This document shows positions 2,708-18,487 of a stretch of 64,000 nucleotides of DNA, piece after piece; position 1 is the first letter of the stretch; the number at the start of each line of letters is the position of its first letter. The position numbers were made by a program, and so were the translations under genes. The notes under the pieces were generated by a model. It did not search any database, was not told the origin of the DNA, and saw only the letters and a program-made list of their open reading frames with translations. Origin of the DNA: a bacterium (GTDB taxonomy: Bacteria; Bacteroidota; Ignavibacteria; Kapaibacteriales; UBA2268); NCBI GenBank assembly GCA_030431515.1, contig JAUIIX010000002.1:14936-78935 (forward strand), given 5' to 3'.

Positions 2708-3451
2708 TTATTCTACAATTAACTTTTTAGTTAAAACGTAATCATTGTTAAATAATTTTAAAAAATAAGTGCCAGGAGTATAATTTGATACATTTAATTT
2801 AGATTGAGTAAAATCTAATACTTTAATCCCTTCCAAATTATACAGTTCCCCTCTACTAAATTGAGAATCAATAATTACAATATTATTAGTCGGATTAGGG
2901 TATAAATTAATATTATCATCTTTGATTTTAACTGAATTTATATTTGTGTTATACCAAACTAATAATTTTAGATTTAAAGAAGGTACTAAGTCGTTATCCC
3001 AAAAATATGATTCAGATTTCATTAAATCAATATTTATAAATTGACCACCTGCTTCATCTTGTATTTTAGCAGAATCAATATTGATACCTGATAATTCCCA
3101 TTTGATAGTGAATTTACGACCGCCGTCCAACCAAACTCTAAAATTATGTGTGTGTTGTATATCTTCAGTTGGGTAAGGAATTAAATCTAAATTACCCCAA
3201 ACTTGACTTGTTAAATTTGAATCATAATAATTAAGTAATGTAGAGATATAATATGGAGAAGGTGGAGGAGCGTTAATTGTAAATATTTCATTTAAATCTT
3301 CATCCCATCCAAAAGTTGCATCTTGATGTAAACCAAAAATCAAATCACTTCCTTTGTCACCATCTTCTGTTTCAAAAGATAGTTTAATTTGTGTTCCTTG
3401 TGCAAATGAAGCAGAATAACACAATAATATTATTAGAATATATTTTAACAT
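2708..3451 (-). CDS. T9SS type A sorting domain protein
   Basis: Signal peptide; C-terminal LYPNPT...LYNLEG...GTYFLKL...KKLIVE. Confidence 0.85.
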   Translation of the reverse strand: MLKYILIILLCYSASFAQGTQIKLSFETEDGDKGSDLIFGLHQDATFGWDEDLNEIFTINAPPPSPYYISTLLNYYDSNLTSQVWGNLDLIPYPTEDIQHTHNFRVWLDGGRKFTIKWELSGINIDSAKIQDEAGGQFINIDLMKSESYFWDNDLVPSLNLKLLVWYNTNINSVKIKDDNINLYPNPTNNIVIIDSQFSRGELYNLEGIKVLDFTQSKLNVSNYTPGTYFLKLFNNDYVLTKKLIVE

Positions 3452-3467
3452 AGTTTTCCTTTAAAAT

Positions 3468-3501
3468 ATAAATGGACAACTATTGCTAGCTGTCCATTTA
3501 T
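3468..3501 (-). terminator. Intergenic hairpin (terminator or mRNA-stabilising stem)
   Basis: ATAAATGGACA-actattgctagc-TGTCCATTTAT inverted repeat just after the stop of 3525..6887; weak U-tract. Confidence 0.55.
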
Positions 3502-3524
3502 TATTAATAACTTATTAGCATTAT

Positions 3525-6500
3525 TTATTTAACAATACTAATTTTTTGAGTAGTAACGTTAGCACCAGCTTCAATTCTTACGATGTAATTACCAACAGTT
3601 AAGTTGTTTACATCATAGTTGATAGTATAAGTACCAGCATTTACATTATTATTTAATACTGTAGCAACTTTGTTACCAATAGCATCAAATAAAGAAATAG
3701 TTACAAATTCATCGTTTGCAATTGTATAAGCAATGTTTACAACACCACTTTCGTTAGCAGGGTTAGGATAAACATCGATACCGAATTGGTTATCAACTGT
3801 TTCAGTTCTATTAACAACGATAGCGTTAGAGATTGAGTTTTCAATCATAACATTACCATTAGTACCTTTTGCAATAGTACCATAAACTTCACCAGTAACT
3901 GCATCAGAGAAAGTTAAGTCTTTATCAGCATATTTTACACTGATTGATAATGGATATTCAACACCTTGTAAATTAATTACAGTTTCGTTAACATTATCAA
4001 CTTTGTAATCACCTCTAAATCTAACATCAAATACTTCAGTAGGAGGTACTGGAGGTAATTGATATTTTTCAATATCAGTGTTTTTATCAGCTAAGAATAA
4101 TTGACCATTATGAGCTTTATTATCTCTAATTTCAATTTTAGTTGAATTAGCATATACATCGTTTCTTGAATTTTTTCTACCAGTAATAACTTTTAAGTTA
4201 TTTTGCTCTAAATGGTAGTAACCATTATCGTTAACTTTGATCCAGTAACCTAAACCAGGTAAAATAGTAGAAACTTCTTCATAACCTTGATCAGTAACAT
4301 ATCTCCAAACTCCATACTCTAATGTATATTCTACATCTGGAGTAGTACCGTTAAATGCATCAAATTCAATATTTTCAACACTAACTGGAGTAGAAATAGC
4401 ACCAACTGTATTCCATCCACCTCTACCTTTAGAACCAGGATATACTCTTGGAGCATTACCTTTATCTACAGAGATTTCAGAGATATAAGTACCAGCAAAT
4501 GATTTATCTACTGTACTTGAATACTTCATGAAGTAACCAATACCTACTCTTAATATCTCATCTTGTTGATAAGTAGAAGGAGTGAAGAAAATTGGTTTGT
4601 TAATTACATTCGGGTAGAATGTTTTGTAGTTTTGGTTAACTGCACTTACAGGTAAAGATAAGAAATTCCAACCTTCTTTGATAATTGGGTTACCAAATTC
4701 ATCAACGAATTGAACTTCTCTAGGTAAAGTATATTCAATTAAGAATTCATTTACTCTTTGATCCTGAATAGTGTAAGAACGTTTAAACTGACCTAAAGAG
4801 TTAGCAGTTCTCATATTTACTGAAGGGAATAATTGTCCATTTTCAGTATCTCTTAAGAATAACTCAGAACCAGGTAAAAATTGTCTAGTATCCCATTCAA
4901 CTACAACTGGATAATTTTCATCACCATTTTCGTCAAATTTAACATAATAAACGATTGATTGATTAGTATCAAAGTTACTTCTGATATCTCTTGATGCAGA
5001 ACGAGGAACTTCATCATAAGCAGCCCAATCACCGAAACCGTATTGAGAACCTTTAATGTCATTACCATTAGCATCTTTTAATGGATTACCTTGAGCATCT
5101 AACGCATAGAATCTAGCACCAAAACCAGTTAATGGAGATCCGTAAGCATACTCACCATATAGTGTATCAACTGCATCTGTTGCTCTATGACCAGTACCAA
5201 AAATGATATTAGTTTTGTCTGGACCAGGGTTTCCAGGTACAGAACCTCTAGAGTTATAGATATCTAAATTAATACCTGCAACATTACCTAAACCTTCAAT
5301 ACCTTCTTGAGGCGTTCTGAAATAGATAAAGATAACTTTCAATCTTGTAACTTGGTTTAAAGCATAATCTGAAGATATTGTAATATATCCTTCATACATA
5401 CCAGCTCTTTCAGGAGTATTAGTTAATTTACTTGGATCACAAATAATTTTAAAAAATACTCTACCAGGATTACCATTAGGATCATTAAGTTCCTCATCAG
5501 GTTGTACACCATCAATAGAAACACTACCTAAAGTACCATTATCCACATAATTAAAAGTAGCTCTTCTTGTACGACTTGGAACAACATTTCTACCTTTTGA
5601 AGAAACAGTTTGTACTTCTAACCACTCTTGGTCTGTTTCAATAGTAACATTTTCAATACGAGTATTAGTAGTTAAATTAACTAATTCAAACTCTCTTTCA
5701 GCAACTATTGGGTCTATTGAATTAGAATCAATTGTTAAAGGATCAGCAACAGCCATCTCAATAATTTCATTGAAATTACCTTTCTTAATTTCAACTAATT
5801 GTTCTGGTTGACCAATTTGTCTTTCCATTATATAATTGAACTGTGGTAATGCTTGCATCAATCTAACATAAATAACACCAGGTAAAGTTGGATTATCAAT
5901 TGGAGTAACTCTATTTTCATCATAGTTATTTATACCAGCTAATCCAGGTGTTTTTGGATCTTCACTTGGTGGTATATTATAATAATTGTGTTTAGTTACA
6001 GGCCAATATGTATCAAAACCAGGATATAATGAAGTTCTATAAGAATTAGGTTGAACTTGATCTAAATGAGCTTTCCACTCGATAAATGGAGCATGTTCAG
6101 TAACATTATAATCATTATATATAATTTCTTCATTATCAATTATTAATTGAGATACAATAATACCTGCATCATTAATTTGTTGATTTCTGTAAGGTCTAAC
6201 TCTCATTTTAATATAACATAGTACTCTATAATCATCATGAGCCGGCAAAGCAACACCATTTGAAGTACCAGTAATAGTTAATTTCATACCACCTTTTGAT
6301 ACATCTACTGATTTAGAAGGATCTACTAAATATGTTCTATATCTATCAGATTCTTCATAATCCATAGAAATATTCCAATCCTTAGCATCACAAGGTTCGT
6401 CAGTTCCAACTCTTTCTTGCTCTTTAAAGATTCTTGGATGCTCAGTTACTATTCCTAATGGTTGAAAGACTTCATTTCTATATAAAATAGAAAATTTAAA

Positions 6501-6887
6501 ACTTTCAATAGGATCTGGAACTAATTCGACAGTATCAGAATTAAATTCTAATACTACCTTTTCTTTTATATTCCATTGATTTCGAATAAATATAGGAATA
6601 AAGACTTCTCTATTTCCTTCACCAACATAATTACTTGTTTGGTCATTTATTCTCTCAACAGATATAGGCAATAATACACGACCATCTGGATACCAATCAG
6701 ATTCATAGGTACCATCAGCACCTACTAAACTAAGTTCTGGTATTCTTGGTGCATTAGTTAGATGTTGACCTTTGTAATGGTTCTGTTGAGCAACAGAACT
6801 ACTTACCAAGCCCATACCAAATATGGCTACTAGAACCAAAGGTAACAGACCTCTATAGATCTTGTTTCTTGAAAATATTCCTTTCAT
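3525..6887 (-). CDS. Large T9SS cargo protein with cohesin-like and BACON-like domains
   Basis: Signal peptide; REVFIPIFIRN...IESFKFSILY...VLCYIKMRV (cohesin-like); ETDQEWLEV...GMYEGYITISS (BACON-like); CTD VYPNPA...GNYIVRI...KISIVK. Confidence 0.75.
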   Translation of the reverse strand: MKGIFSRNKIYRGLLPLVLVAIFGMGLVSSSVAQQNHYKGQHLTNAPRIPELSLVGADGTYESDWYPDGRVLLPISVERINDQTSNYVGEGNREVFIPIFIRNQWNIKEKVVLEFNSDTVELVPDPIESFKFSILYRNEVFQPLGIVTEHPRIFKEQERVGTDEPCDAKDWNISMDYEESDRYRTYLVDPSKSVDVSKGGMKLTITGTSNGVALPAHDDYRVLCYIKMRVRPYRNQQINDAGIIVSQLIIDNEEIIYNDYNVTEHAPFIEWKAHLDQVQPNSYRTSLYPGFDTYWPVTKHNYYNIPPSEDPKTPGLAGINNYDENRVTPIDNPTLPGVIYVRLMQALPQFNYIMERQIGQPEQLVEIKKGNFNEIIEMAVADPLTIDSNSIDPIVAEREFELVNLTTNTRIENVTIETDQEWLEVQTVSSKGRNVVPSRTRRATFNYVDNGTLGSVSIDGVQPDEELNDPNGNPGRVFFKIICDPSKLTNTPERAGMYEGYITISSDYALNQVTRLKVIFIYFRTPQEGIEGLGNVAGINLDIYNSRGSVPGNPGPDKTNIIFGTGHRATDAVDTLYGEYAYGSPLTGFGARFYALDAQGNPLKDANGNDIKGSQYGFGDWAAYDEVPRSASRDIRSNFDTNQSIVYYVKFDENGDENYPVVVEWDTRQFLPGSELFLRDTENGQLFPSVNMRTANSLGQFKRSYTIQDQRVNEFLIEYTLPREVQFVDEFGNPIIKEGWNFLSLPVSAVNQNYKTFYPNVINKPIFFTPSTYQQDEILRVGIGYFMKYSSTVDKSFAGTYISEISVDKGNAPRVYPGSKGRGGWNTVGAISTPVSVENIEFDAFNGTTPDVEYTLEYGVWRYVTDQGYEEVSTILPGLGYWIKVNDNGYYHLEQNNLKVITGRKNSRNDVYANSTKIEIRDNKAHNGQLFLADKNTDIEKYQLPPVPPTEVFDVRFRGDYKVDNVNETVINLQGVEYPLSISVKYADKDLTFSDAVTGEVYGTIAKGTNGNVMIENSISNAIVVNRTETVDNQFGIDVYPNPANESGVVNIAYTIANDEFVTISLFDAIGNKVATVLNNNVNAGTYTINYDVNNLTVGNYIVRIEAGANVTTQKISIVK

Positions 6888-6916
6888 AAGGACACCTTTT
6901 ATTTATTTTTTAAAAA

Positions 6917-7999
6917 TTAATTAATAATTATTTTTTCTGTTTTTAATTCAGATTTTATAATATATAATCCTCTGTCTAATTGAGGAATAGTTTCAATACC
7001 AATTTTACTTTCGTAAACTTTAGTACCTAATATATTATAAATCTGAAATTTAGTAATTTTAGAACTTTGAATATAATCTCTTATAGAATTCATTTCCTTA
7101 GATTTATAAGTTTGGTAATTTACTTCAAACTTATTTCCAATTCGAGTTATACAAGATTTTTTATCCCAATCAACAATTTCAACTTCAATTTTTGAATTTG
7201 TTTCTAAGTTTAGTTCAGCATTTTGAATTATATTTATTTCAATCAACTCATTTTTACTTACTATATTTTTAGAATTCAATCTATATACATCGTATAATAG
7301 TTTATCATCTATTTTTTCTAATGTATAATTTTCATTTTCAACTAATGCTAATGATATTAAGTTTTTATCATAAGTTAATTTAAAATCAAAATTATCCATT
7401 CTATTGTCTGAGTATATATCAGTATCCAAGAATAATTTTTTTGTTAATGTTGAATCTATTATTATATCTTTCAAAGAACTGTTTAATGAAATTTTTCTAT
7501 TTTCCAAATCTTTTACCGTTGGAGAAAATTCAATATATGATTCAGATATATCTATTTCACGAGTATATTCATCTGTCATTTGTAAAAAATCAAGCGAAAA
7601 TGTTACACTACTAAAATCATCAGCTATATATATAAATTCAAACCCAACTAAACTAGTATCACCACTTAACGGATTAGAACCTAAAACACCACCATCTATT
7701 CTTACTACTTGATTATCTTTATCATTATTAGCAAATTTATGACTAAATTTACTCATAACAGTTGAAGCAGTTAAATAGTTATTATAAAGAACTTTTGTTG
7801 TATCATATTTTAATCCAAGATTAAATCCATATAAAGAATCTTCTTTTTTAATATCTTCAACAGATATAAAGAAAGTTATTCTTTTATCGTCTTCGCAGGG
7901 ATCAAAACTTCTTACCAAATTAAATCTTGGTTTAATACTCTCCTCACCATAACTAATGTTACAGAATAATATAAGTAATATGGAGAGGAAAGTATTCAT
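6917..7999 (-). CDS. Secreted protein with two cohesin-like domains and a short T9SS-like CTD
   Basis: SLYGFNLGLKYDTTK...LSGDTSLVGFEF and MDNFDFKLTYDKNLI; C-terminal IYNILG...GLYIIK...KIIIN. Confidence 0.65.
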   Translation of the reverse strand: MNTFLSILLILFCNISYGEESIKPRFNLVRSFDPCEDDKRITFFISVEDIKKEDSLYGFNLGLKYDTTKVLYNNYLTASTVMSKFSHKFANNDKDNQVVRIDGGVLGSNPLSGDTSLVGFEFIYIADDFSSVTFSLDFLQMTDEYTREIDISESYIEFSPTVKDLENRKISLNSSLKDIIIDSTLTKKLFLDTDIYSDNRMDNFDFKLTYDKNLISLALVENENYTLEKIDDKLLYDVYRLNSKNIVSKNELIEINIIQNAELNLETNSKIEVEIVDWDKKSCITRIGNKFEVNYQTYKSKEMNSIRDYIQSSKITKFQIYNILGTKVYESKIGIETIPQLDRGLYIIKSELKTEKIIIN

Positions 8000-8013: not shown

Positions 8014-10095
8014 TTATTTACTTAAAATAATTTTAGAAACTGCATTAAATTCAGAATTACTGATTCTAATGATATAAGTACCTGTAGCACAAGCTTTACC
8101 TGTGTTATCAATACCATTCCAATTGAATTCATTAATTCCACTATTTAATTCACCTGCAAATATAGTTGAAACTAAGTTACCATAAACATCATATACTTCT
8201 AAGTTATAAAAGTTTGTAGCATCTAAGTTAACTCTAATTTTTGCATTTTCACCAGTTGTAACTGGATTAGGATGAACATCAATAGTATTTTCTAATGTTT
8301 CATTTTTATTTAAAGTAATTGTCATGTTGTTAGTTTTAACATCATTATATTTTGTTCCAGAAACATTAATAACATCGTTTTCTGTTTCAACATAGATATA
8401 AGCATAAGCTTCATCTTTAGCAAAGTTTCCTGATCCAATAATAGCAGTTCTATTATTATGGAAATCTGCAAATATATCTTTTTCAGAATCATTGTTATCT
8501 AAGTTTATTTCTACTTGATTAATTTTAACATCAAAGTTAAATACAGTAGAGAAACCTTCTGGTGCAATACCATTACTATAAACAGGGATTTTATATTTAT
8601 TATTTCCTTGTTTCATTGGTTCACCGAATGAAATATTATCAGCTAAATTTTCTTTATAAACTAATTTACCTTTTTTATCTTTCCATTCATATAACCAAGG
8701 TAAAGAGGGAATATGTACTGATAAATAATCAATAATCCAATAAGCATCATGTTCGTCACATTGGAAATGAACTTGGTTCAAAGATGTAACTCTATTAGGT
8801 AAATCTTGTTGGAAGTATTTACTTCTTTGAGGAATATCACCTCTTGTTTTAGTATTTACTAATACAATACCAGCTGCTTGTGGTGTAACAACATTCCCAG
8901 GATAACCAGGATCATTTTTCCCACCACTCGTGTTATAAAAAGTATGAGAAACAGATTGAATATAACCTTGAACTTTTACAGTATCAGAGTCATAGTATAA
9001 TGGAACACCTGCATCGTTAACAAAGTAACCTTGAGCATTAGTTTTCCAAACAACAGTATCAATACTATAGAATCTACCATCGTGATCAACATCAGCATGA
9101 TAAGCTTCTCTACCTCTTACTGAATCCATTGGGATACCAGTTACAACAGATCTCATAATTTTTCTTACATCATTAAATGTAACAAATCTATTTTGAGCCA
9201 TTCCAAAGTGCATACCAAATTCACCATGCGATAAATCAGTATCACCATCACCCCAAGAATCTAACAAAGTAGTAATTGGGAAAGCAGAAAACTTAATTTT
9301 AAAGTTTGTTCCACCAGATGGTTGCCAAATATTAGATAATGTTTGAACACCAAAAGGATCACAGTTAGGGAAAATATTGTCTAAAGGATCATTATCATAA
9401 CATAATCCATTAATATATTCACCAGACTCACCTTTTATACCAATAGAAGCACCATCAGTTTTAACAATAGCTCCTCCAGATCCATTTACTAAACCATAAG
9501 CAAACTCAATATCACCTTGACGAGTATTGATATTTGTAGATTTATAAAGAATAACTTGGAAACTACCAATAGAAGAAGGTTCTGTTTTATCGTTCATATT
9601 AATATCTTTCCACTCGATAACGATTCTATTATTATCCGCTTTAATCAATACATTAGATACTTTGTAACCTACATCTGCAACAGTTCTGTAATAGTGATCA
9701 CCCCAAAAAGGAGCAACAACATTATTTTGAAATGAATTTACTTGATTATTAAATAAATTCATAGGGTCAGCTTGTGGTAAGTTTAATGGTTGATTAAATG
9801 TAATAAATCCATTAACACAAATCCACAATTCAGTTCTATCTATACCATTAAAAGTAAATGGGAAAGGTAGAGTATATTTATAATAACCATCATCTCTGTT
9901 GACGTTATTAAAATTGTCAGTAAATTGAGCACCAGTTACTTGAGTGACACCAAAACCAGGAGTTAGAGTTGTATAATTCTCTTGACTAATAATTGGTGTT
10001 TCGAACTCGCTATCAATTCCTGCAGTAGCGTAATAGCTTGGCATAACTGTTAATACTAACAGTAGCGATGCTATTTTAAGGAAATTTGATTTCAT
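8014..10095 (-). CDS. T9SS cargo protein: nidogen(NIDO)-like domain, split dockerin-like region, CTD
   Basis: LPFPFTFNG..NGFITF..VAPFWGD..FQVILY..GDIEFAY; GDGDTD..VTFNDV / ADVDHDG..DAYWIIDYL; CTD VHPNPV..WNGIDNTG..GTYIIRI..KIILSK. Confidence 0.7.
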   Translation of the reverse strand: MKSNFLKIASLLLVLTVMPSYYATAGIDSEFETPIISQENYTTLTPGFGVTQVTGAQFTDNFNNVNRDDGYYKYTLPFPFTFNGIDRTELWICVNGFITFNQPLNLPQADPMNLFNNQVNSFQNNVVAPFWGDHYYRTVADVGYKVSNVLIKADNNRIVIEWKDINMNDKTEPSSIGSFQVILYKSTNINTRQGDIEFAYGLVNGSGGAIVKTDGASIGIKGESGEYINGLCYDNDPLDNIFPNCDPFGVQTLSNIWQPSGGTNFKIKFSAFPITTLLDSWGDGDTDLSHGEFGMHFGMAQNRFVTFNDVRKIMRSVVTGIPMDSVRGREAYHADVDHDGRFYSIDTVVWKTNAQGYFVNDAGVPLYYDSDTVKVQGYIQSVSHTFYNTSGGKNDPGYPGNVVTPQAAGIVLVNTKTRGDIPQRSKYFQQDLPNRVTSLNQVHFQCDEHDAYWIIDYLSVHIPSLPWLYEWKDKKGKLVYKENLADNISFGEPMKQGNNKYKIPVYSNGIAPEGFSTVFNFDVKINQVEINLDNNDSEKDIFADFHNNRTAIIGSGNFAKDEAYAYIYVETENDVINVSGTKYNDVKTNNMTITLNKNETLENTIDVHPNPVTTGENAKIRVNLDATNFYNLEVYDVYGNLVSTIFAGELNSGINEFNWNGIDNTGKACATGTYIIRISNSEFNAVSKIILSK

Positions 10096-10130: not shown

Positions 10131-10148
10131 GCAGGGGTTTCCCCCTGC
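10131..10148 (-). terminator. GC-rich intergenic hairpin after giant gene
   Basis: GCAGGGG-tttc-CCCCTGC between 10157 stop and 10095 start; short U-rich tail. Confidence 0.55.
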
Positions 10149-10156
10149 AATTGTTA

Positions 10157-13100
10157 TTATTTTACAATGTTTACAGGATAGTTAGATGTTTGTCCATTTA
10201 CAACCATTCTTACTCTGTATGCACCGTTAGTCAATTGTAATCCTGTGTCAGTTGTAGCATTCCAGTTTACTGTGTGAGTTCCAACTTTGTAAGTATTATT
10301 TACTAAAGTAGCAACTGTATTACCTAACATATCAACAACAACCATTTCAACATTAGCAGTTTGATCAACTGTGAATGTGATTTTACTGTCTTCACTTACT
10401 GGGTTAGGACTTACACTATTAATTGCAGTGCTTAAACCAGTGTTAGTTTCAACTGAAGTATAAATATCACTAAAGATAATTAAACTATTGATAGTTGAGT
10501 TTGTAATTGTTAAAGTAACGATATCACCATCTACATTTACTGTTTCTAAACCAGTATAATCAGAATTATCCCAACCTTTACCAGTTCTCATGTCTATATC
10601 AAAGAATTGACCATTAGAGAAACCATCTCTTAAGTACCAAGAAGTTCCATCAGGGTTACCATCTTTGTCATCAATTGCTGGAACACAAGTTTTATCCCAA
10701 GTAACAGTTAATGGGTACATTGGAGATGTATTACCATTTTCACCACCTGGTTGAATTTCAGCTTTGTAAATAAATGAAGCTACTGGGAATTGTTGACCAG
10801 CTGGATAAATAGTTCTTTCTAAACCATTTCTTTCTGGCATTGTCCATCTTGCATCAAACACGTCTGATACAGGTAATGGAGGTAATTCATATTCACAGAA
10901 GTTATCATCTAAGTTACCGATAGTTAAATCACCATCTTTACCATCACCAGTTGTTGGTCCATTATCAGAAGCAGCACCCCACTCTAATACATTGAATGCA
11001 CCAATACTATTTTGAATTCTTAATTCACAAGTAAAGTTAGTTTCATCAGAGATTTTGATTCTATAAGTAATAACGTGTTCGTTACCAGCTTTGTCAGTTA
11101 CTCTAATTTTTACAGTAGCTTTACCATCAGCATCTCTAGGGATGTTAAGGTTAGTACTTTTAACTACGATTTTTTGTTCTTTAGAAGTTGTTCCAGTATA
11201 AGTTTCTGGAGAAACAGTAACACCATTTGCTGGCTCTAATACTTCAAAAGTTAATGTTTCTTCAAATCCAACTTCTTCTCTTTCTAAGTCAATATCAGTT
11301 ACGATTAAAGTATCAGAGTACTCTAATCCCATATCCCAACAATCAACACTTGGAGTAGCTGTTAACATTGGAGTGTGGTTAGTAGAATCAACTCTTAAAT
11401 CAAAAGTTTTAACAGCAGTTAAGCCATTTGGATCTTTAACTAAAACAGATACTTTAGCAGCTGCTTTAGGAGCATCTTTAACTCTTGGAATACCGTATAA
11501 CATACCTGATTGTTCATTGATGAATAACCACTCTGGAGTTTCTGCAAAATAATCAGTTCCTAATTCCCAGTTACCTGCTTCAGGGAAACAATTATCTTTT
11601 GGAATACCATTAGGGTAATCACCAGCTTTAATTAATTCAAATGTATGTTCATCATCAAAGTTTCTATCGATAATTCTGATAGATTTTAATGTATCAATTA
11701 ACTCTTTATTATACTCAACATCTTCTTTAGCTGGTAATAAAGTAGTAGTGATAATTTCAGGAGCAACGTTAACTTTAACATTATATGTCATAGCTAATTT
11801 TCCACCGTGACCGTCATTTGCAATAATTGTAAATGATGTATCAGTATTGATATATCTATTATAAGAATCTTGACCACCTTGAGGTAAACCTTTAAGTAAA
11901 CTTAATGCATCAGTTCTAGGAATTCTAATGTTTAATTTACCATAAGTAGTTAAATCTTGCTCTAATAAATCTTTATCATTTACATCATCACCATCTTTAC
12001 CATATAAATACATGTATTCATTTGACATCCAAGAAGGTCTTGTATGAGTTAAAACTGTATCGATTTTACCATTATCTGGATTAGTATAATAAGTTGTATC
12101 AATTACAATTACATCACCATCACCAGTTATAACTTGGTTAATAAATCCATAAGAAGTTCTACCATATTTAAAGTCCCAGTTGTGAACTTTTTGAGCCCAA
12201 GCATCTTCTAACTCATCATCTGTGTTAATATCAACTTGGAATCTTAATTTGTCAGTTAAGTTTGCAACTAAGTATGGTTGACCATTAATATCAATTGGAT
12301 CACAAGCAGCTACTGAACCATCGTAAACTACGATTGTATCTTTAACGCTACCATCTTTATAATCTCTAGTAAGTGTTTCTGAAGAAGCACCCCAATCTAA
12401 GAAACGAGGAACTGAGTCAGTTACAAATATTTTGAAAGCATAAGTATTTGTGAATGCAGGATTCTTAGATCCAGCAAAGTCAATTGTATCTTGTTGTAAA
12501 TATCTAGCGTTTAATTCATCATAGCTTTCTGCGTGATAGTAGTCAGCATATAATTCAATTAATTTAGCTAAAGTATCATTATCATTAGTCCAACCATAAG
12601 TTTTCTTAAGTGAATCTAATGTTCTAAAGTTAGGAGGATAAGATTTAGCAGTTACAGTAACTGTTTCACCACCTGGAACAACATAAGGATTAATTGGTTT
12701 ACCTTTGAATACGTAATGTCCAACAGCACCATCTTTAACAGCAGCACTTTCAGAAGCGTATATTGAGTCAACCATTAACCAGTTTCTAACACCAGAACCA
12801 CTTGGAGTAGCCCATGAGTAATCTAAATAAGTATATTTATCTTTAGTCATGTCAAAAATAGCTCTTGGGTCATAGTAACTATTAGAATCAACAGCAGTAA
12901 TTGCTAAGATTGAATCTGTACCATTTGCATATCCAGTTAAGTTAGAGTAAGTACCATTTTGAACTGGGTAGTATCTATCTTCAGATACCCAAACAGTGTT
13001 AAATAATTCTTCAATAACTAAAGTATCCATATCACCATTTGCGTTTTTGATATCATCCATATTAGGTCTGATTTCAATAACTGGCTCAGTTTGTAATCTC

Positions 13101-16100
13101 ACGATATCACCAGTCCATTGAGGTTTCTCAACACCTGAAGTGATAACGAATTCTGCACCTTTATCATAAGCAGCATTAATACCTTCAGCCCAAAGAACTG
13201 TTCTTGAAACAACTCTTACAGTGTCATTAACTCTTACTGGTAATGCTCTATATCTTTCTCCAGCGAAGAAAGTAGCTCTACCTGCATTTTCAGTTGGAAG
13301 GTCAGGTCTGTTAGAGAATATGTTAGTACCTACACCACCGAATTGTGCTTTTACATTAGAATATTTTCTACCTGGTAAAGTTGCACCATCTTCTTTGTAA
13401 GCGTCTCTATATAAGTTATCTAATAAACTTGTAACTCCACCTAAGTTAGAACCATAGTTTTCAAGACCTTCAGCAGATCTTCTAATTAAAGTATTACCTA
13501 ATCTGTTTGATGAATCAGGTACTAATTCAACTCTACCTCTGAATAATTCTCTGTTAGGAGCATCTTCAGATACTTGCTCTAAGTTAATTCTAATAAAATC
13601 TGAAGTAGTTTCGTTAATAACGAAGAATACTGTTTCATTTTTCACTAATGGATCGTGGTTAGATCTTTCAATTAAACCATTGTAATCAGCTTCAGCTTCT
13701 AAATAAATAGGTTGTCCAATTGGATGATAAAATCCACCATTAGAATTTCTAGCATATTCTTGTTGTAATACATCAAAGAATTCATATCTAGTATCTTCTG
13801 CACAGAAAGGATCTCTAACCCATCTTTTTACAACTTTGTTATCAGAAGGTAATGCATTGTCAAATGTTACTAACATTGGAGGAACACCAACTGCAAAGTC
13901 TTCAATAGGAGACATTCTACGTTTTGAATAATCTGCTGATTTAATATCAGTACCTTTGTCAAAAATATCATAGATAAGACCAGAGAATAATAAATTCTCA
14001 GGAATTGACATAGTACCAGAAGTATTTTCATCAACACCATTTCTTAAAGGAATAGACTCATAGTTATATCTTTCGTATGATTCAAAAGGACCTTGTTCTC
14101 TTGCATCATCACCAGTTTGCCATGAATTTCTAAATCTTAACCAAGTATTACCATCACCTGCAACAAAGAAAGTTTCTCTTGAAGCATTAGGGAAATTATA
14201 CTGTTGGTTATTTACAATTAAGTTTTCTAAGTCAATATTAATATTAGCTTCAGTTTTACCCCAGTAGTTACCTCTTAATGTATCAGTACCACCAAAACCT
14301 AAACCAGTTGAACCAGCTAAAACACCTTTTGTATCAGGAGCATCTGGTAATCTGATTAAGAATCTTGCATTGTTATCATACATTGAGTTTGCAGCTTCTG
14401 AGAATATTCTAGATGGTAATGGTCCTTGAACCTCACCATAAAGAACAGCACCAGCTAAATCACTTGAAGCAAAGTTATGCTCAATATCACCATTACCATC
14501 TCTTTGGATAGGACCAGTGATTAAGTTTTGAGAAGCACCAATTCCAGAGTTAGCAACGTTTCCAGTTACTAATGATCTGTTGAATACTAATTTTAAGTCA
14601 TAGTTATCAGAATAAATACCAGCACCAGTAAATGAAGTATTATTTTGAATTCTTACACGGTTAAATTGAACTGAATCTTGTCTTCCAACATTACCTTTTG
14701 TAACGTCATCTAAGATATATAAAGCTCCACCAAGACCAACACCATTTTCTGCTAAGTTAGTACCTTTGTGTCTTCTTACTACATCAATTTTACCTAAGTC
14801 AGCTGGTTTAGCTTCTGTTAAATCATCACCATTAGTAGTAAATTCAACAAAACCATCATCACCAACAACGTAACCTAAATCTGCATTTCTAAATGCTGCA
14901 CCATATAAATTGTTATTATTAGTTGCAGTAGATGTTAAATCAGACCAAGAAACACCTTGATCATCAGATTTATAAATAGTAGCACCATTACCAACTGCAT
15001 AAATTACATTTTGAGTAGCAACGATTACTTTATTTAAATTGTTAGGAGTAAATCTAGGACTAGCTTCATTCCAGTTAGCACCACCATCATTAGTCCAAGC
15101 AAATACACCTGAATTACCAACAGTATAACCTCTAGTAGCAGAACTAAACGCTACAGAGTTCAAGTTTTGGTTAATTGTAGATGTTTGGAAATTCCAAGTA
15201 GCACCACCATCAATAGTTTTTAAGATAGTAGCGTTGTCACCAACAGCATATCCAACCAATGAACTAACAAAACTTACATCACGTAATTCAACACCAGCTT
15301 GAATTGTTGATACATTCCAAGTTTCTCCACCATCAATAGTAGTTAAGAAACCACCATCTTCACCAACAGCGTATCCAGTGTTAACTCCTAAGAATTGAAC
15401 TGCATTGATATTTCTTGTGTAAGCATTAGCTTTTAATACCCAAGTAGCACCACCATTAGTAGTTTTTAATATCTCACCTGCATCACCTACGGCGATAGCT
15501 AAGTTATCATTAATTATATCAATATCATTTATTCTTCTTTGAGTACCAGAATTTAAAGTAGTCCATTTAGTACCATTTTCGTCAATCTTAACGATAGTTC
15601 CTAAAGCACCAACTGCAAATCCCCATTCATCATTAAACATATCAATAGCACTTAACAAGTTAGTTGTTTTACTAGTTCCACCTTCTTGTTGAGTAGTACC
15701 TCTACCCATTTCAGTATCAATTACATCTTGATCTAAAATGATTTCATTTTCAATAAATCTAGTTAACATTCTTGTATCAGCTGGGTAAGTAGCTGCTGAA
15801 TTCCATGTAAACACATCATTATTAGAAGTGTACATTTGACCAACACCATTAGCATCATAAGATACAGTATCTAAATCAGTAACAAACATTTTATTACTAG
15901 ATACACCAGCACCGATACTTACAGTAGGAGAAATTTGTGCAATAGCTGCACCATTACCATTATAAACTGTATTACCGATAAATTCAGTAGCTTGAACAAC
16001 GTTCAAGTTAGCTATTTTAGCATAAATAGCTCCACCACCTCTAATGTCTAATCTAGTTTTACCAGTAATTGATTTACCAACTACGTTATCTCTAAAAGAT

Positions 16101-18412
16101 GCTCTTCTAATTAAAATGTGTTTGTGCCATTCTTGAAGACCATTCCCTTCAGGAATATCTAAATGTAAAGCACCACCAGAATAACCAGCTTCGTTTTCCC
16201 AGAATCTAACTGCAAATTTTCCACCATAACCTAATAATTGGTTATTTTCAACTCCACCTGCACCATAAATTCTTGCATTTCTTTTTCCAAATATAGCTCC
16301 ACCATGAGTTAAAGCTGTATTGTTTTGGAATAAAATGTTATAACCTAAATCTCTTTGAGAGATTAAATTATCATTACCACCAATAATTGGAGACATTGTT
16401 CTATCAGAATTACCATCTACATAGATTGCACCACCATTACCAGCTTTATTTTGAGAAAATTCAGTTGAATTACTAAAGTTCTCTCTATTTGGCCCACCTC
16501 TTACTTGAAGTCTTCCAAAAGTATTCTTAGAGAATATCGCTCCACCTTGTGCATACTCACCTGGAGAGAATCCAGAGTTGTAGTCAACAAAATAAGGAGA
16601 GAAAGCTTCATTTGAATTAAAGTGACCAGCTACGATTAAAGAAGTGTAATCACCAACGTAAATTGCACCACCTTTAGAACCAACTGATTGACCAGAATTT
16701 TGTCTGTTTTCTACTCTATTATTAATAGCACTAAATGAATCATCTCCTAAAGAAATTCTTTCAGCTGCTTGATACGTTCCATCACCATCAGCATCAACAT
16801 ATATTGCATTGTTAATACCAAAACCAACTTCTATTCTTCTATTTTCGTCAAATTCACGACCAGCAATATAAATTGCACCACCAAATGCATTGTTACCATA
16901 ACCAGAACCGTAAGGATAAGATGCTATATCTAAATCAGTAATTACTGTTTGATTACCGATTTTAATCTGACCAACATCTGCTAAAACTACTTCATTATTT
17001 TCAAATGTATTATTTCTAACACGCCCTAAATAAATAGCTATTCTTGCATCGTCCCAAGCCATTCTATCTCTATCATTTAATGGTTCAGGATAATCAGTTC
17101 CATTTTCATCAATTCTATCGATAGCTGGAATACCACCTAAAGGACCATTAGGAGGTACAAAACCACCTGGATTATAAGTATTGATATCTGAATTTGAACC
17201 ATCAGGGTTTGTTACATTAGGGTTTTTAGTAAATGGATAAATACCATTTGGAGTTTTTATTGGAACTACCAAACTATTTTTTAAAGCGTTTAAAGTTGCA
17301 ATATCAGATCTTGCAGGTAATCCAGCAGGAGCTTGTAAGAATTGGATTGCTCCACCTTTAAATCTAGCTCTGTTATTTGCAAATTTAGAATTTAAAATCC
17401 AAGTTCTAGTAGAGAAAGTAGTTATTACCCCTCCAGAACCATTAGTTAATTTTCTAAATTCATTATTTACATTATCCCAATTTGGAGCAGAAGCTGCCCA
17501 AGCATAGTTAGCACCATTTTCTGAATAATATGGAGCTCTATCAACTAAAGTATCTTTTTTAAATCCTTCAAACTCACAATTTCTAAAGAAAGCTGCTCTA
17601 GCACCAGGAAGAACAACAATGTGTCCCCACTCTTGCGAAAAGTTATTTACTGGCTGACCAATAAATTTAATTTTGCTTTTTACAATACTTGGAGTCTTGT
17701 TACCAATTCTCTTATAAGGGAATTGTTTTAAGTTTGGATCTGAATTTGGATTCAAATTCATTCTAGATGTGATAAACATTAATGCTTGTTCGTAAGTCAC
17801 CACGATATCTTTACCTGCAACTAATCCTATTGGATTACCTGCAGCATCAACATCTAAATCTCTCATTTTTCTTGCTGTTGTATCTAAAACTACATTGAAG
17901 ATAAAATTTCTTTTAGCTTCATTAATAGTTAATTCAGGAGTAGTACCTGTGAAATCAACAGTAGAAATAGTTCCACTTGTGTTGTTCCCATTATTTCCAT
18001 GTAAGAAATAAGCAAGATCACTATATCCAGCATAAGAAGGCAAAGTATTACCTGCTCTTAATGGATTAGCCGAACCTGTAGGAGCAATTGGATTCAAATT
18101 TGAACCACTTAATAACTGGGGATTAGCTGTATATGTTGCTTCAGCAAAACCATCAGCTATTATTCTACCACCAACCGAGTCAATTAAACGACCTGATGGC
18201 ATGAACATCACAGTTGTACCTGGCTCTATAATTAGAGCACCCGCTACAACATAAGACTTATTAATCTCGTAAATTGTGTCCTTTACGAAGACTCTGACAT
18301 CTCCTGGGGCTAATTTACCTGAGACTTGCACTCTTGGCTGACCTAACATCACGCTCGTTGAGAGCAATGTCAGTACCGCCATAAAGATGCATGAACGAAA
18401 TAATCGTTTCAT
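10157..18412 (-). CDS. Giant (~2750 aa) T9SS surface protein: Pmp-like GGA(I/L)/FxxN beta-helix, YCF48-like propeller, Ig-like (He_PIG) domains, CTD
   Basis: About a dozen GGAI-type/FxxN repeats; AVG..G.ILKT.DGG.TW blades; PEWLFINEQSGMLYGIP; CTD SPNPV..GAYRVRM..VNIVK. Start placed at 18412 (GGAGGT SD upstream, signal peptide MKRLFRSC) rather than 18466. Confidence 0.85.
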   Translation of the reverse strand: MKRLFRSCIFMAVLTLLSTSVMLGQPRVQVSGKLAPGDVRVFVKDTIYEINKSYVVAGALIIEPGTTVMFMPSGRLIDSVGGRIIADGFAEATYTANPQLLSGSNLNPIAPTGSANPLRAGNTLPSYAGYSDLAYFLHGNNGNNTSGTISTVDFTGTTPELTINEAKRNFIFNVVLDTTARKMRDLDVDAAGNPIGLVAGKDIVVTYEQALMFITSRMNLNPNSDPNLKQFPYKRIGNKTPSIVKSKIKFIGQPVNNFSQEWGHIVVLPGARAAFFRNCEFEGFKKDTLVDRAPYYSENGANYAWAASAPNWDNVNNEFRKLTNGSGGVITTFSTRTWILNSKFANNRARFKGGAIQFLQAPAGLPARSDIATLNALKNSLVVPIKTPNGIYPFTKNPNVTNPDGSNSDINTYNPGGFVPPNGPLGGIPAIDRIDENGTDYPEPLNDRDRMAWDDARIAIYLGRVRNNTFENNEVVLADVGQIKIGNQTVITDLDIASYPYGSGYGNNAFGGAIYIAGREFDENRRIEVGFGINNAIYVDADGDGTYQAAERISLGDDSFSAINNRVENRQNSGQSVGSKGGAIYVGDYTSLIVAGHFNSNEAFSPYFVDYNSGFSPGEYAQGGAIFSKNTFGRLQVRGGPNRENFSNSTEFSQNKAGNGGAIYVDGNSDRTMSPIIGGNDNLISQRDLGYNILFQNNTALTHGGAIFGKRNARIYGAGGVENNQLLGYGGKFAVRFWENEAGYSGGALHLDIPEGNGLQEWHKHILIRRASFRDNVVGKSITGKTRLDIRGGGAIYAKIANLNVVQATEFIGNTVYNGNGAAIAQISPTVSIGAGVSSNKMFVTDLDTVSYDANGVGQMYTSNNDVFTWNSAATYPADTRMLTRFIENEIILDQDVIDTEMGRGTTQQEGGTSKTTNLLSAIDMFNDEWGFAVGALGTIVKIDENGTKWTTLNSGTQRRINDIDIINDNLAIAVGDAGEILKTTNGGATWVLKANAYTRNINAVQFLGVNTGYAVGEDGGFLTTIDGGETWNVSTIQAGVELRDVSFVSSLVGYAVGDNATILKTIDGGATWNFQTSTINQNLNSVAFSSATRGYTVGNSGVFAWTNDGGANWNEASPRFTPNNLNKVIVATQNVIYAVGNGATIYKSDDQGVSWSDLTSTATNNNNLYGAAFRNADLGYVVGDDGFVEFTTNGDDLTEAKPADLGKIDVVRRHKGTNLAENGVGLGGALYILDDVTKGNVGRQDSVQFNRVRIQNNTSFTGAGIYSDNYDLKLVFNRSLVTGNVANSGIGASQNLITGPIQRDGNGDIEHNFASSDLAGAVLYGEVQGPLPSRIFSEAANSMYDNNARFLIRLPDAPDTKGVLAGSTGLGFGGTDTLRGNYWGKTEANINIDLENLIVNNQQYNFPNASRETFFVAGDGNTWLRFRNSWQTGDDAREQGPFESYERYNYESIPLRNGVDENTSGTMSIPENLLFSGLIYDIFDKGTDIKSADYSKRRMSPIEDFAVGVPPMLVTFDNALPSDNKVVKRWVRDPFCAEDTRYEFFDVLQQEYARNSNGGFYHPIGQPIYLEAEADYNGLIERSNHDPLVKNETVFFVINETTSDFIRINLEQVSEDAPNRELFRGRVELVPDSSNRLGNTLIRRSAEGLENYGSNLGGVTSLLDNLYRDAYKEDGATLPGRKYSNVKAQFGGVGTNIFSNRPDLPTENAGRATFFAGERYRALPVRVNDTVRVVSRTVLWAEGINAAYDKGAEFVITSGVEKPQWTGDIVRLQTEPVIEIRPNMDDIKNANGDMDTLVIEELFNTVWVSEDRYYPVQNGTYSNLTGYANGTDSILAITAVDSNSYYDPRAIFDMTKDKYTYLDYSWATPSGSGVRNWLMVDSIYASESAAVKDGAVGHYVFKGKPINPYVVPGGETVTVTAKSYPPNFRTLDSLKKTYGWTNDNDTLAKLIELYADYYHAESYDELNARYLQQDTIDFAGSKNPAFTNTYAFKIFVTDSVPRFLDWGASSETLTRDYKDGSVKDTIVVYDGSVAACDPIDINGQPYLVANLTDKLRFQVDINTDDELEDAWAQKVHNWDFKYGRTSYGFINQVITGDGDVIVIDTTYYTNPDNGKIDTVLTHTRPSWMSNEYMYLYGKDGDDVNDKDLLEQDLTTYGKLNIRIPRTDALSLLKGLPQGGQDSYNRYINTDTSFTIIANDGHGGKLAMTYNVKVNVAPEIITTTLLPAKEDVEYNKELIDTLKSIRIIDRNFDDEHTFELIKAGDYPNGIPKDNCFPEAGNWELGTDYFAETPEWLFINEQSGMLYGIPRVKDAPKAAAKVSVLVKDPNGLTAVKTFDLRVDSTNHTPMLTATPSVDCWDMGLEYSDTLIVTDIDLEREEVGFEETLTFEVLEPANGVTVSPETYTGTTSKEQKIVVKSTNLNIPRDADGKATVKIRVTDKAGNEHVITYRIKISDETNFTCELRIQNSIGAFNVLEWGAASDNGPTTGDGKDGDLTIGNLDDNFCEYELPPLPVSDVFDARWTMPERNGLERTIYPAGQQFPVASFIYKAEIQPGGENGNTSPMYPLTVTWDKTCVPAIDDKDGNPDGTSWYLRDGFSNGQFFDIDMRTGKGWDNSDYTGLETVNVDGDIVTLTITNSTINSLIIFSDIYTSVETNTGLSTAINSVSPNPVSEDSKITFTVDQTANVEMVVVDMLGNTVATLVNNTYKVGTHTVNWNATTDTGLQLTNGAYRVRMVVNGQTSNYPVNIVK

Positions 18413-18487
18413 AAAAACCTCCGAAATACAATATTTAGTTAAAAAATTATTTTTTTTCATTTTCATTTTATAGTTTATTCACTTTGA

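Follow-up and report, generated by a model that had tools for sequence, protein, structure and literature searches.

A conserved five-gene cluster of T9SS-type surface proteins with a cohesin fold and a dockerin-like module in a Kapabacteria-type order

The known T9SS cargo of Bacteroidota comprises enzymes, adhesins or S-layer proteins that are attached singly, and type-A cargo is normally fixed to the cell one protein at a time by PorU/PorV-dependent attachment. Cohesins outside cellulosomes include those of Archaeoglobus fulgidus (PDB 2xdh) and of Clostridium perfringens GH84C/GH33 (PDB 2w1n, 2o4e, 2vo8), and Peer et al. 2009 is reportedly a survey of non-cellulosomal cohesin and dockerin modules. 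Here we describe, within a window of 64,000 nt (the whole stretch of DNA analysed), a lineage-wide cluster of a Kapabacteria-type order, with close homologues named Candidatus Kapabacteria or Kapaibacterium in the databases. Its five enzyme-free surface proteins would be T9SS-anchored and may well be joined by cohesin-dockerin-type docking, a reading to which we give about an even chance.

The cluster is formed by five ORFs in a row, spaced by 14-73 nt, as seen in the ORF list and translations (Table 1). This agrees with the initial annotation of five consecutive co-oriented genes, the exact extent being 2708-18466, all on the minus strand. Upstream of the giant P0005, at a distance of 21 nt, lies the TPR_21 (YfgM-like) gene, while at the other end the GT2 and beta-barrel-like genes also follow the P0001 position in 10 of 20 related loci, a co-occurrence that need not tie them to the five genes. 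The 61-nt gap past the stop codon of the giant holds a G+C-rich hairpin. Its stem recurs in the genomes G003 and G004, and G002 has another stem in its place. RNA-library contigs span this hairpin, and contigs with 95-100% identity cover parts of the giant, 693-aa and 1120-aa genes (four runs, two studies); such libraries may include DNA and are no proof of a single transcript for the five genes.

Table 1. Features of the five-gene cluster and its surroundings (window positions)
Feature	Position	Strand	Assignment or basis
Small outer-membrane beta-barrel-like protein	981..1742	-	Downstream of GT2 gene; Pfam
GT2 glycosyltransferase	1744..2697	-	Downstream of five-gene block; Pfam
P0001, 247 aa	2708..3451	-	T9SS cargo protein; N-domain without family assignment, CTD (residues 183-246)
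P0002, 1120 aa	3525..6887	-	T9SS cargo protein
T9SS type-A CTD of P0002, residues 1039-1118	3534..3773	-	PF18962, TIGR04183
Cohesin-like module at P0002 N-terminus, residues ~45-275	6063..6755	-	hhalign to P0003 cohesin
P0003, 360 aa	6917..7999	-	T9SS cargo protein; cohesin, Ig-like domain, CTD
Second beta-sandwich of P0003, residues 166-300	7100..7504	-	Generic pilin/Ig-like
Cohesin-fold module of P0003, residues 20-163	7511..7942	-	Fold search of AF2 model
P0004, 693 aa	8014..10095	-	T9SS cargo protein; NIDO-like N-domain, dockerin-like module, beta-sandwich, CTD
T9SS type-A CTD of P0004, residues 603-693	8017..8289	-	TIGR04183
P0004 beta-sandwich ahead of CTD, residues 483-599, possibly cohesin-like	8299..8649	-	
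Dockerin-like module of P0004, residues 277-469	8689..9267	-	Two EF-hand-type loop + helix segments, insertion in each loop
N-terminal beta domain of P0004, NIDO-like, residues ~30-272	9280..10008	-	Pfam NIDO in homologues
G+C-rich hairpin	10131..10148	-	
P0005 (giant), 2769 aa	10157..18466	-	T9SS cargo protein
C-terminal sorting domain of giant, residues 2685-2761	10184..10414	-	FlgD_ig 32.1 bits (cut-off 27)
Core of Ycf48/BNR-like beta-propeller, giant residues 1036-1193	14888..15361	-	PF14870, NF010237, PDB
TPR_21 (YfgM-like) protein, membrane-anchored	18488..19213	-	Pfam TPR_21 E 1e-9; one TM helix

On the whole, the cluster is kept across the order. The succession of giant, 693-aa, 360-aa and 1120-aa orthologues is the same in all 20 related loci fetched, from 17 genera, with typical sizes along the conserved order of giant, ~650, ~390, ~1050 and ~250 aa, and this strict retention suggests that the products work together. 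In each of these loci a giant orthologue of 2204-2754 aa is the immediate upstream neighbour of the P0004 orthologue, and the TPR_21 gene precedes the giant in all 19 that reach that far. A match to P0004 occurs in every one of 41 genomes from the order. For P0002, an orthologue is present in 20 of 20 loci, and in a 151-genome phylum sample full-length matches are confined to this order, where all 7 genomes have one; among the 30 remaining genomes of the class, one, from another family, has a near-full-length match. The P0003 position holds an ORF of 358-425 aa in all 20 loci, 12 of them recognisable by BLASTP, the identity across the order being 15-25%, while an orthologue of P0001 is recognised by BLASTP at its position in 12 of the 18 loci reaching it.

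As to export, a hydrophobic, signal-peptide-like N-terminus is seen in all five translations, as judged by eye. C-terminal sorting domains (CTDs) over the curated cut-offs are found in P0001 (Pfam 40.5 bits, TIGR04183 37.3 bits), P0002 (PF18962 41.1 bits, TIGR04183 31.9 bits) and P0004 (TIGR04183 34.2 bits vs 23). Those of P0003 (17.4 vs 23) and of the giant (TIGR04183 17.0 bits vs 23) are sub-threshold, so that the earlier assignment of a T9SS CTD to each protein stands at the cut-offs for three of them and at the family level for two: the P0003 family profile matches the solved T9SS CTD 8glk_D (E 4.3e-5), with a Por_Secre_tail match in 10 of 21 P0003 orthologues, and the C-termini of giant orthologues match the P0004 and P0002 CTDs in BLASTP. 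The T9SS core is present in the genome, with SprA at 716 bits (cut-off 200), PorU at 807.7 (cut-off 420) and PorV at 257.5 (cut-off 250). From what is known of these families, each protein would be exported by Sec and then pass the T9SS by way of its CTD; most likely the CTD is then cleaved and the PorU/PorV machinery attaches the protein to the outer membrane, on its external side.

The giant is made up of a signal peptide, repeats of the PMP type around residue 710, a seven-bladed Ycf48/BNR-like propeller, a long C-terminal half without assignment and the sorting domain. The propeller core is matched by PF14870 (E 6.7e-26), NF010237 (E 4.1e-24) and the PDB Ycf48 entries 5ojp_A (E 1.4e-19) and 2xbg_A (E ~1.5e-19). 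Neither a cohesin nor a dockerin is found in the giant, which leaves the proposal of a complex built around this ~2750-aa protein unsupported. Most of the giant and of P0002 has no family match in Pfam and NCBIfam, and at E <= 0.1 these two collections yield no enzyme family in the five proteins, in line with the lack of glycoside hydrolase or protease motifs noticed before, except for an 'F510_1955 glycosylhydrolase' match in the giant. This match is far sub-threshold (34.8 vs 175 bits) and overlaps the Ycf48/BNR-type propeller.

Cohesin-like signatures had been proposed at four places, and one of them, residues 20-163 of P0003, passes the fold test. In the AF2 model (pLDDT 88.6, pTM 0.72) the cohesin match of this module is specific, ~4-5 Z units above generic sandwiches, and we regard the predicted cohesin fold as genuine; a cohesin fold on its own does not establish docking function. 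By sequence the match is faint: Pfam Cohesin hits P0003 at E 8.4e-4, below the Pfam cut-off and still the only such match in the genome, and at E < 0.01 it hits just 3 of 21 orthologues. The supposed second copy, residues 166-300, is not supported as a cohesin, its fold being generic pilin/Ig-like. The N-terminus of P0002 is weakly related by profile to the P0003 cohesin (hhalign E 2.8e-4, prob 41%; with cut domains E 4.4e-5, prob 69%, 40 columns) and is probably a second, related cohesin-like module. The pre-CTD sandwich of P0004 remains unproven, with a cohesin match level with unrelated folds and no profile relation to the P0003 cohesin in hhalign. In addition, no cohesin or dockerin was matched when the profiles of the three families were run against PDB sequences.

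P0004 begins with its NIDO-like domain, where the family is best conserved, at 40-50% identity within the order. Of the 67 homologues, 21 are matched here by Pfam NIDO (E 6.1e-5 at best), and P0004 itself is not. There follows the dockerin-like motif of the initial annotation, which is present and highly conserved as a duplicated EF-hand-like pair: D or N occupies loop positions 1, 3 and 5, and a D stands ahead of each helix, in 61-67 of the 67 homologues. Segment 1 keeps D283 (64/67), D285, D/N287 and D309 (67/67 each), and segment 2 keeps D335, G340 and D450 (67/67 each) and N/D337 and N/D339 (65/67 each), so patterned that calcium may be bound. A conserved helix follows each segment; in the AF2 model (pLDDT 82.0, pTM 0.48, first loop at pLDDT < 50) helices lie at 307-319 and 448-458, with a short one between (330-334). 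Both loops, however, are interrupted, by insertions of 9-13 and 31-110 residues among the 67 homologues, the second in this genus being ~80 residues with beta strands; to our knowledge, insertions in both calcium loops occur in no solved dockerin. Pfam Dockerin_1 is blind to the motif, with no match in P0004 itself and 3 of 67 homologues matched, all at E >= 0.18. Against the two kinds of Pfam-positive dockerins of the lineage, hhalign gives a probability of 2% over 9-13 aligned columns.

A search of 1.84 billion proteins with the module profile found 94. The sole match outside the P0004 family is P0252, a D/N/G-rich repeat protein with eight tandem Pfam Dockerin_1 domains (197.6 bits), at an E of 8e-8 that sums eight individually insignificant stretches (0.5-13 bits). 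All eight align in one register, from loop end through helix and linker to the next loop start. As leads only, the named clusters of a protein language model that lie closest to the module are Dockerin_1 (scores 0.85, 0.83 and 0.81), and a cluster at 0.79 has Dockerin_1 in 92% and NIDO in 18% of its members. The module thus appears collinear with a dockerin and is not a canonical one. It might also clasp the following sandwich (483-599), in its own chain or a second copy, for self-stabilisation or homo-oligomers and no hetero-complex with the neighbours; given the tied cohesin match and missing profile relation of that sandwich, and a pTM that means no confident inter-domain packing, we think this quite unlikely.

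Dockerins that Pfam does recognise are encoded elsewhere in the genome, in two ~2000-aa T9SS giants bearing LamG, which share a contig with the cluster (ORFs of 1971 and about 2135 aa, with Dockerin_1 at 28.6 and 22.9 bits) and in a ~455-aa protein (458-aa ORF, 19.2 bits). Dockerins of this kind are encoded by 29 of the 41 related genomes, and none of the Dockerin_1 matches in the 41 falls within a P0004 orthologue. With the only Pfam Cohesin match of the genome in P0003, the cluster cohesin(s) could be sockets for these proteins, and the cluster could anchor a surface network drawn from across the genome, leaving the P0004 module uninvolved. Yet 12 of the 41 genomes (10 of 34 of good quality) have no Dockerin_1 at E <= 0.001 while all 41 have P0004, and we consider such a network improbable.

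A further possibility, which we hold to be doubtful though deserving more weight, is that the five are independent T9SS-anchored adhesins or coat proteins co-located by co-regulation only, with no cohesin-dockerin docking, the cohesin fold being a beta-sandwich that acts as a spacer or binds a ligand, and the EF-hand-like pair a structural hinge stabilised by calcium. The failure of canonical dockerin detection, the interrupted loops, the single passed fold test and the individual attachment usual for type-A cargo all speak for it, as does the fast divergence of the P0003 family beside a nearly invariant dockerin-like module, unlike what is expected of a tightly co-evolving pair. Against it stand the strictly kept gene order, the eightfold collinearity in register with true dockerin repeats and the specificity of the P0003 cohesin match.

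A cohesin fold and an interrupted dockerin-like module in one conserved cluster probably point to an enzyme-free, clipped-together surface structure. In this docked assembly the P0003 cohesin fold would serve as socket, with the P0002 N-terminal module probably a second one, and the duplicated calcium-loop-plus-helix module of P0004, the only plug-like element of the cluster, as putative plug. The giant, with its beta-helix-type PMP repeats and propeller, and the NIDO-like head of P0004 may be outward-facing adhesive or structural parts. Of the docked scaffold first envisaged, the cohesin fold, the EF-hand-like pair and the gene order are thus retained, while the giant-centred build and the second P0003 cohesin find no support.

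Compared with known systems, the likeness to cellulosomes goes no further than the two module types. The P0003 cohesin has 5-10% identity to clostridial type I pairs (PDB 4uyp, 1ohz, 2vn5, 3ul4, 4dh2), the multi-cohesin scaffoldin, dockerin-bearing enzymes and carbohydrate-binding module of clostridial cellulosomes are missing here, and anchoring would use the T9SS CTD instead of SLH or sortase. The genome has SprA, PorU and PorV, and the CTDs, recognised by TIGR04183/PF18962 and structure, resemble those of type-A cargo such as P. gingivalis gingipains and T. forsythia mirolase (5hfs, 8qb1, 8glk_D); unlike known Bacteroidota cargo, the cargo here comes from a conserved block of five genes that includes docking-type modules. 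The cluster would rather vary the non-cellulosomal cohesin-dockerin theme, with docking putative: its modules belong to T9SS cargo of a Gram-negative lineage related to Bacteroidota, no enzyme is attached to them, the five genes keep their arrangement throughout the order, and its putative dockerin, with insertions in both calcium loops, is missed by Pfam. The Pfam-positive dockerins of the same lineage, found in LamG giants of ~2000-2200 aa and in proteins of ~460-517 aa, have uninterrupted loops and score above the Pfam cut-off, as the P0004 module does not, while both have D-x-[DN]-x-[DN]-G loop starts in common, and the LamG giant of about 2135 aa in the present genome bears a T9SS CTD like the cluster proteins.

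Overall, ORFs and translations confirm that the five proteins P0001 to P0005, the last of which we call the giant, are encoded by consecutive and co-oriented genes at exactly the coordinates first reported, with intergenic gaps of 73, 29, 14 and 61 nt from P0001 to P0005. A hydrophobic, signal-peptide-like N-terminus is seen by eye in all five. The initial annotation also gave each of them the C-terminal sorting domain (CTD) of the type IX secretion system (T9SS). This stands above the curated cut-offs for P0001 (PF18962 40.5 bits, TIGR04183 37.3), P0002 (PF18962 41.1 bits, TIGR04183 31.9) and P0004 (TIGR04183 34.2 vs 23), but is sub-threshold for P0003 and P0005 (TIGR04183 17.4 and 17.0 respectively, vs 23). 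The call for P0003 is nevertheless supported, since a profile of 21 P0003 orthologues matches the solved T9SS CTD 8glk_D among PDB sequences (E 4.3e-5) and 10 of the 21 match Por_Secre_tail individually. The own genome encodes SprA (716.2 bits, cut-off 200), PorU (807.7 bits, cut-off 420) and, adjoining PorU, PorV (257.5 bits, cut-off 250). The reported absence of glycoside hydrolase and protease motifs is borne out: at E <= 0.1 in Pfam and NCBIfam the five proteins match no enzyme family, be it glycoside hydrolase, lyase, esterase or protease, and no CBM. The nearest enzyme model, 'glycosylhydrolase', is far below its threshold (34.8 vs 175 bits) and overlaps the Ycf48/BNR-like propeller of the giant (PF14870 E 6.7e-26; PDB 5ojp_A E 1.4e-19).

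Features of the cluster, of the dockerin-like module of P0004 and of Dockerin_1 proteins elsewhere in the genome (window positions, locus positions with L-number, or residues of P0004)
Feature	Position	Strand	Basis or remark
P0001, 247 aa	2708-3451	minus	ORF and translation
P0002, 1120 aa	3525-6887	minus	ORF and translation
P0003, 360 aa	6917-7999	minus	ORF and translation
P0004, 693 aa	8014-10095	minus	ORF and translation
G+C-rich hairpin	10131-10148	minus	directly after the stop codon of the giant
P0005 (giant), 2769 aa	10157-18466	minus	ORF and translation
TPR_21 (YfgM-like) single-pass membrane protein	18488-19213	minus	21 nt upstream of the giant
Segment 1, start	W281 to S289		W281, G282 67/67 each; D283 64/67; D285 67/67; D/N287 67/67; S289 67/67
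Segment 1, insertion	after S289		9-13 variable residues
Segment 1, end	Q301 to D309		Q301, V305 67/67; T306 66/67; D309 67/67; helix 307-319 (AF2)
Segment 2, start	D335 to R341		D335, V336 67/67; N/D337 65/67; H338 67/67; N/D339 65/67; G340, R341 67/67
Segment 2, insertion			31-110 variable residues; ~80 residues of beta strands in this genus
Segment 2, end	D450, A451		both 67/67; helix 448-458 closing with invariant L-P-W
2134-aa giant	L031:5161-11562	minus	Laminin_G_3, Dockerin_1 22.9 bits, T9SS CTD
1970-aa giant	L032:6023-11932	minus	Laminin_G_3, Dockerin_1 28.6 bits; no T9SS CTD found
454-aa protein, other contig	L033:1414-2775	minus	Dockerin_1 19.2 bits

All 41 sampled genomes of the same order, from 11 families and 33 genera, contain a match to P0004. 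For 20 of the 40 relatives (4 of the same genus and 16 of other genera), up to 20 kb around the P0004 orthologue were taken, and every ORF in these loci was compared with the window proteins. The gene order of the cluster proves conserved: a giant (2204-2754 aa), a P0004-like protein (621-920 aa), an ORF of 358-425 aa in the position of P0003 and a P0002-like protein (1016-1133 aa, one of them truncated by a contig end) follow one another in 20/20 loci. BLASTP recognises the relationship of the middle ORF to P0003 in 12 of the 20, and all 20 can be aligned, with an invariant Cys and a conserved D-S-L-x-G-F / Y-D stretch. Of the 18 loci reaching the position of P0001, 12 have an ORF recognised as similar to it. 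The TPR_21 gene precedes that of the giant in all 19 loci reaching that far, and its product may be a periplasmic chaperone for very large cargo proteins; farther upstream in the window come an unassigned gene and then RNase Y. Downstream of the cluster lie genes for a GT2 glycosyltransferase, a small beta-barrel-like outer-membrane protein and a GHMP kinase, the first two being kept in 10 of the 20 loci. For the 253-aa outer-membrane protein a role of the PorP/SprF type was rejected, its one match, to OMP_b-brl, being sub-threshold. Across 151 sampled genomes of the phylum, P0002 is matched over its full length in all 7 that belong to the order (own included) and nearly so in 1 of 30 other genomes of the class, and elsewhere only by its last ~380 residues or by the CTD alone; its best atlas score, 0.83, is uninformative. 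Close homologues are named in databases as Candidatus Kapabacteria or Kapaibacterium, or have the older labels Ignavibacteriae or Chlorobi. On the whole, the cluster is lineage-defining and not an island. Outside the order, the last ~380 residues of P0002 (profile positions ~665-1044) also stand as a module of their own, occurring in several proteins per genome, as in G135 (five places), G170, G044, G186, G112, G165 and G142.

Cohesin-like signatures had been read in P0002, twice in P0003 and weakly in P0004. In P0003 the reading holds by fold for residues 20-163, but not by the family threshold, as Pfam Cohesin (PF00963) matches residues 39-123 with 20.0 bits, below the gathering score of 24.1. 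This is the sole Cohesin match in the whole genome; 3 of the 21 P0003 orthologues match at E < 0.01, and 0 of 45 database homologues carry a precomputed Cohesin annotation. Searches of PDB sequences with single proteins and family profiles found no cohesin or dockerin, returning CTD/FlgD-type matches only. The AlphaFold2 model of P0003, made from a 63-sequence alignment, has a mean pLDDT of 88.6 and a pTM of 0.72. When residues 20-163 are searched against 48,161 representative PDB chains, the top 14 rows are 14 cohesins, and the choice between a cohesin fold and a generic Ig-like sandwich falls on the former. The module is predicted as a jelly-roll beta-sandwich of nine strands that superposes on solved cohesins along its full length. 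As modelled, then, residues 20-163 of P0003 are a cohesin fold, a case in which the structure decides and the sequence evidence is weak. Whole-chain Foldseek searches of both models decide nothing, the multi-domain matches (integrin legs, cohesin dyad 3l8q, 2w1n) all having a low TM score. The N-terminal ~230 residues of P0002 have the same conserved strand motifs as the P0003 cohesin, and hhalign relates the two with E 2.8e-4 for whole alignments and E 4.4e-5 for cut domains (probability 69%, 40 columns), which is suggestive of a second cohesin-like module. Residues 483-599 of P0004 and 166-300 of P0003 were further candidates for such a module, less well supported than residues 20-163 of P0003. 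Among the other putative cohesin-like parts hhalign finds no relation, and proven cohesins amount to one per protein at most. Besides, P0003 has two cysteines, C35 and C283, of which one is invariant and the other nearly so in 63 homologues that otherwise diverge strongly; one is within the cohesin and the other where the second domain ends, and an inter-domain disulfide is possible.

A dockerin of type I consists of tandem segments of ~22 residues, each with a 12-residue EF-hand-type calcium loop followed by a helix, and folds into three helices with two bound calcium ions. In P0004 the dockerin-like module, residues 277-469, lies between the NIDO-like N-domain and the beta-sandwich 483-599 and contains the stretch that is most strongly conserved within the family. 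Counting conservation by position over 67 P0004 homologues (see the table), we find the EF-hand positions 1, 3 and 5 occupied by D/N, and each helix preceded by an invariant D, in 61-67 of the 67; the distal Asp would be ligand position 12. The layout looks like the duplicated loop-plus-helix of a dockerin, differing by one insertion per loop. In short-insert orthologues, such as those of L016-L020, the module has ~125 residues. The dockerin-like motif first noticed in this protein is in this way duplicated with its ligand positions kept, but both loops are split and Dockerin_1 (PF00404) is not matched above its gathering score: there is no match at E <= 0.1 in P0004, 3 of the 67 homologues match with a best E of 0.18, and none is found at E <= 0.001 within the P0004 orthologues of the 41 genomes. 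A profile of A6, a 21-sequence alignment of the module, matches 94 of 1.84 billion representative proteins at E <= 0.001, and 93 of these are of its own family. The only other one (P0252, E 8e-8, 48.9 bits) is a 522-aa database protein with 8 tandem Dockerin_1 domains (197.6 bits) and one N-terminal hydrophobic segment. A6 positions ~20-70, with the loop end V-T-x-x-D, the helix, the linker and the next D-V-N-x-D-G, lie in register on eight successive repeats of this protein, each stretch giving just 0.5-13 bits. By protein-language-model features, the nearest named clusters of residues 270-475 are Dockerin_1 (0.85, 0.83, 0.81), and a further one at 0.79 mixes Dockerin_1 (92% of members) with NIDO (18%); these neighbours are leads only, as all scores are under 0.9. 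The AF2 helices of P0004, including a short one at 330-334 between the two segments, are those expected of a dockerin, but residues 275-287 have pLDDT < 50; when the full P0004 model is fold-searched, residues 484-693 fill the match list. In our reading the module is a real duplicated element of the calcium-loop type and probably a very divergent dockerin; by sequence it falls short of that family. Pfam NIDO (PF06119) is matched at E <= 1 by 21 of the 67 homologues (best 6.1e-5) and not by P0004 itself, and is a precomputed annotation on some database homologues. The P0004 orthologue in the related genome G033 (L027:9243-12002, plus strand) has 920 aa and carries the NIDO-like N-terminal domain twice, and database homologues of 915-934 aa suggest a sub-family in which this domain is doubled.

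Canonical dockerins are also present in the order. In the own genome, three other proteins match Dockerin_1, and both Laminin_G_3 giants among them lie on the same contig, 26-44 kb past the window end. Such matches occur in 29 of the 41 related genomes (L040-L069 being the loci in relatives), always in proteins other than P0004 orthologues. They are of two kinds, one compact and in giants of ~2000-2200 aa, both own-genome copies being LamG-bearing, and one in proteins of ~460-517 aa, where a linker of ~35 residues separates the two segments. Against both kinds the A6 module gives an hhalign probability of 2%. The own-genome Dockerin_1 proteins are candidate partners for the cohesin of the cluster; that the cluster cohesins serve these dockerins encoded elsewhere is an improbable explanation in our view.

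For docking between the cluster products themselves, a complex of P0003 residues 20-165 and P0002 residues 45-275 with the partner P0004 residues 270-475 and two Ca was predicted with scores of 0.78, 0.84 and 0.81. Controls with the partner replaced gave 0.00 and 0.00, and with chain 2 replaced 0.80, so that the required margin was missed; the three-chain prediction counts neither for nor against binding. A rival reading, which we consider rather unlikely, has five independent, co-regulated surface proteins with the P0004 module as a calcium-stabilised hinge. A self-clasp of P0004 appears a long shot. Docking between the cluster products we hold to be a real possibility somewhat short of an even chance. 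The mechanism we propose would begin with Sec export of the five proteins and T9SS passage directed by the CTD. For type-A CTD cargo, CTD removal and surface attachment by PorU/PorV are established, and by analogy the CTD would be removed here and the proteins covalently attached to the surface in the same way. The P0004 module would then plug into the cohesin of P0003, the N-terminal module of P0002 or both, and join the anchored subunits, with the giant and the NIDO-like head of P0004 as outward adhesive or structural parts. The mechanism as a whole seems to us about evenly balanced; its parts other than docking are near-certain. More tentatively, the whole order may build one fixed, enzyme-free surface machine of T9SS-anchored subunits held by cohesin-dockerin docking through a 'split-loop' plug. 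As part of this doubtful reading, the 'split-loop' dockerin would be an unrecognised class with insertions in both calcium loops, one of them grown, in this genus, to a beta module of ~80 residues.

Contigs from four metatranscriptome libraries (two studies) match parts of three cluster genes at 95-100% identity, covering ~10.2-15.6 kb in the giant, 8.08-8.66 and 9.68-10.09 kb in P0004 and 3.5-5.4 kb in P0002. Two of them, X12 (9683-10475) and X18 (9999-10501), span the junction of the giant and P0004. They fit transcription without proving it, since the libraries may hold DNA, and they do not prove a single transcript; the absence of cover, for example at 5.3-7.3 kb and 15.6-18 kb, proves nothing. 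Within the same genus, the stem of the hairpin between these two genes recurs in G003 and G004, whereas G002 has a different one there. This points to a conserved RNA structure, which may attenuate or stabilise the message. A sigma-70 promoter scan returned 87 sites vs 114.6 in shuffles, i.e. fewer, and is useless for this lineage. Near-identical DNA to window positions 2600-12599 (52-97% of sampled words) is present in several metagenomes, from bioreactor sludge, biofloc, marine sediment, freshwater or aquatic sources and wastewater, so that the organism, or strains close to it, must have a wide distribution in waters both engineered and natural.

Of the modular protein glues in bacteria, cohesin-dockerin pairs are the best known, and they find wide use in synthetic biology, yet what is known of their function comes nearly all from Gram-positive cellulosomes. 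If the docking is true, this glue would have a structural or adhesive role in a Gram-negative envelope, a role to which the order kept in all 20 loci, P0004 in all 41 genomes, the lack of enzymes and T9SS export point. T9SS cargo would then assemble after secretion, and a likely role could be given to five conserved 'hypothetical proteins' from a lineage that is widespread in wastewater, sediment and freshwater. There would also be a divergent dockerin type beyond current HMMs, which miss such dockerins, so that these systems may be under-counted in metagenomes. Should the tentative reading of a fixed surface machine hold as well, this would be the first T9SS-anchored cohesin-dockerin assembly kept as the core trait of a whole lineage, and cohesin-dockerin logic would be an ancient, general Gram-negative tool of surface building, not a cellulolytic speciality.

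A cellulosome is a multi-cohesin scaffoldin that collects dockerin-bearing carbohydrate-active enzymes, and we reject it for these five proteins, which are without enzymes or CBMs. The suggestion of a cellulosome-like scaffold free of enzymes survives in that no enzyme family is present, but not as a scaffold of that type, there being no multi-cohesin scaffoldin and no CBM. Taken together, the initial observation is confirmed in part and its interpretation supported in part. An operon of the SprB-type gliding adhesin, considered by analogy only, was rejected too, as no shared family was found. By title and abstract, no description of the cluster is found in the literature on cohesin/dockerin together with type IX secretion or in that on Kapabacteria type IX secretion, nor in the accessible parts of that on non-cellulosomal modules. 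The cluster would work like the cellulosomal cohesin-dockerin systems, with docking here proposed, but without their enzymes, CBM and multi-cohesin scaffoldin. Among known systems it comes nearest to the non-cellulosomal cohesin and dockerin modules, reportedly surveyed by Peer et al. 2009 (as cited in PMC10066038). A giant Omnitrophota ORF with nine non-cellulosomal dockerins is mentioned as a possible adhesin (PMC10066038).
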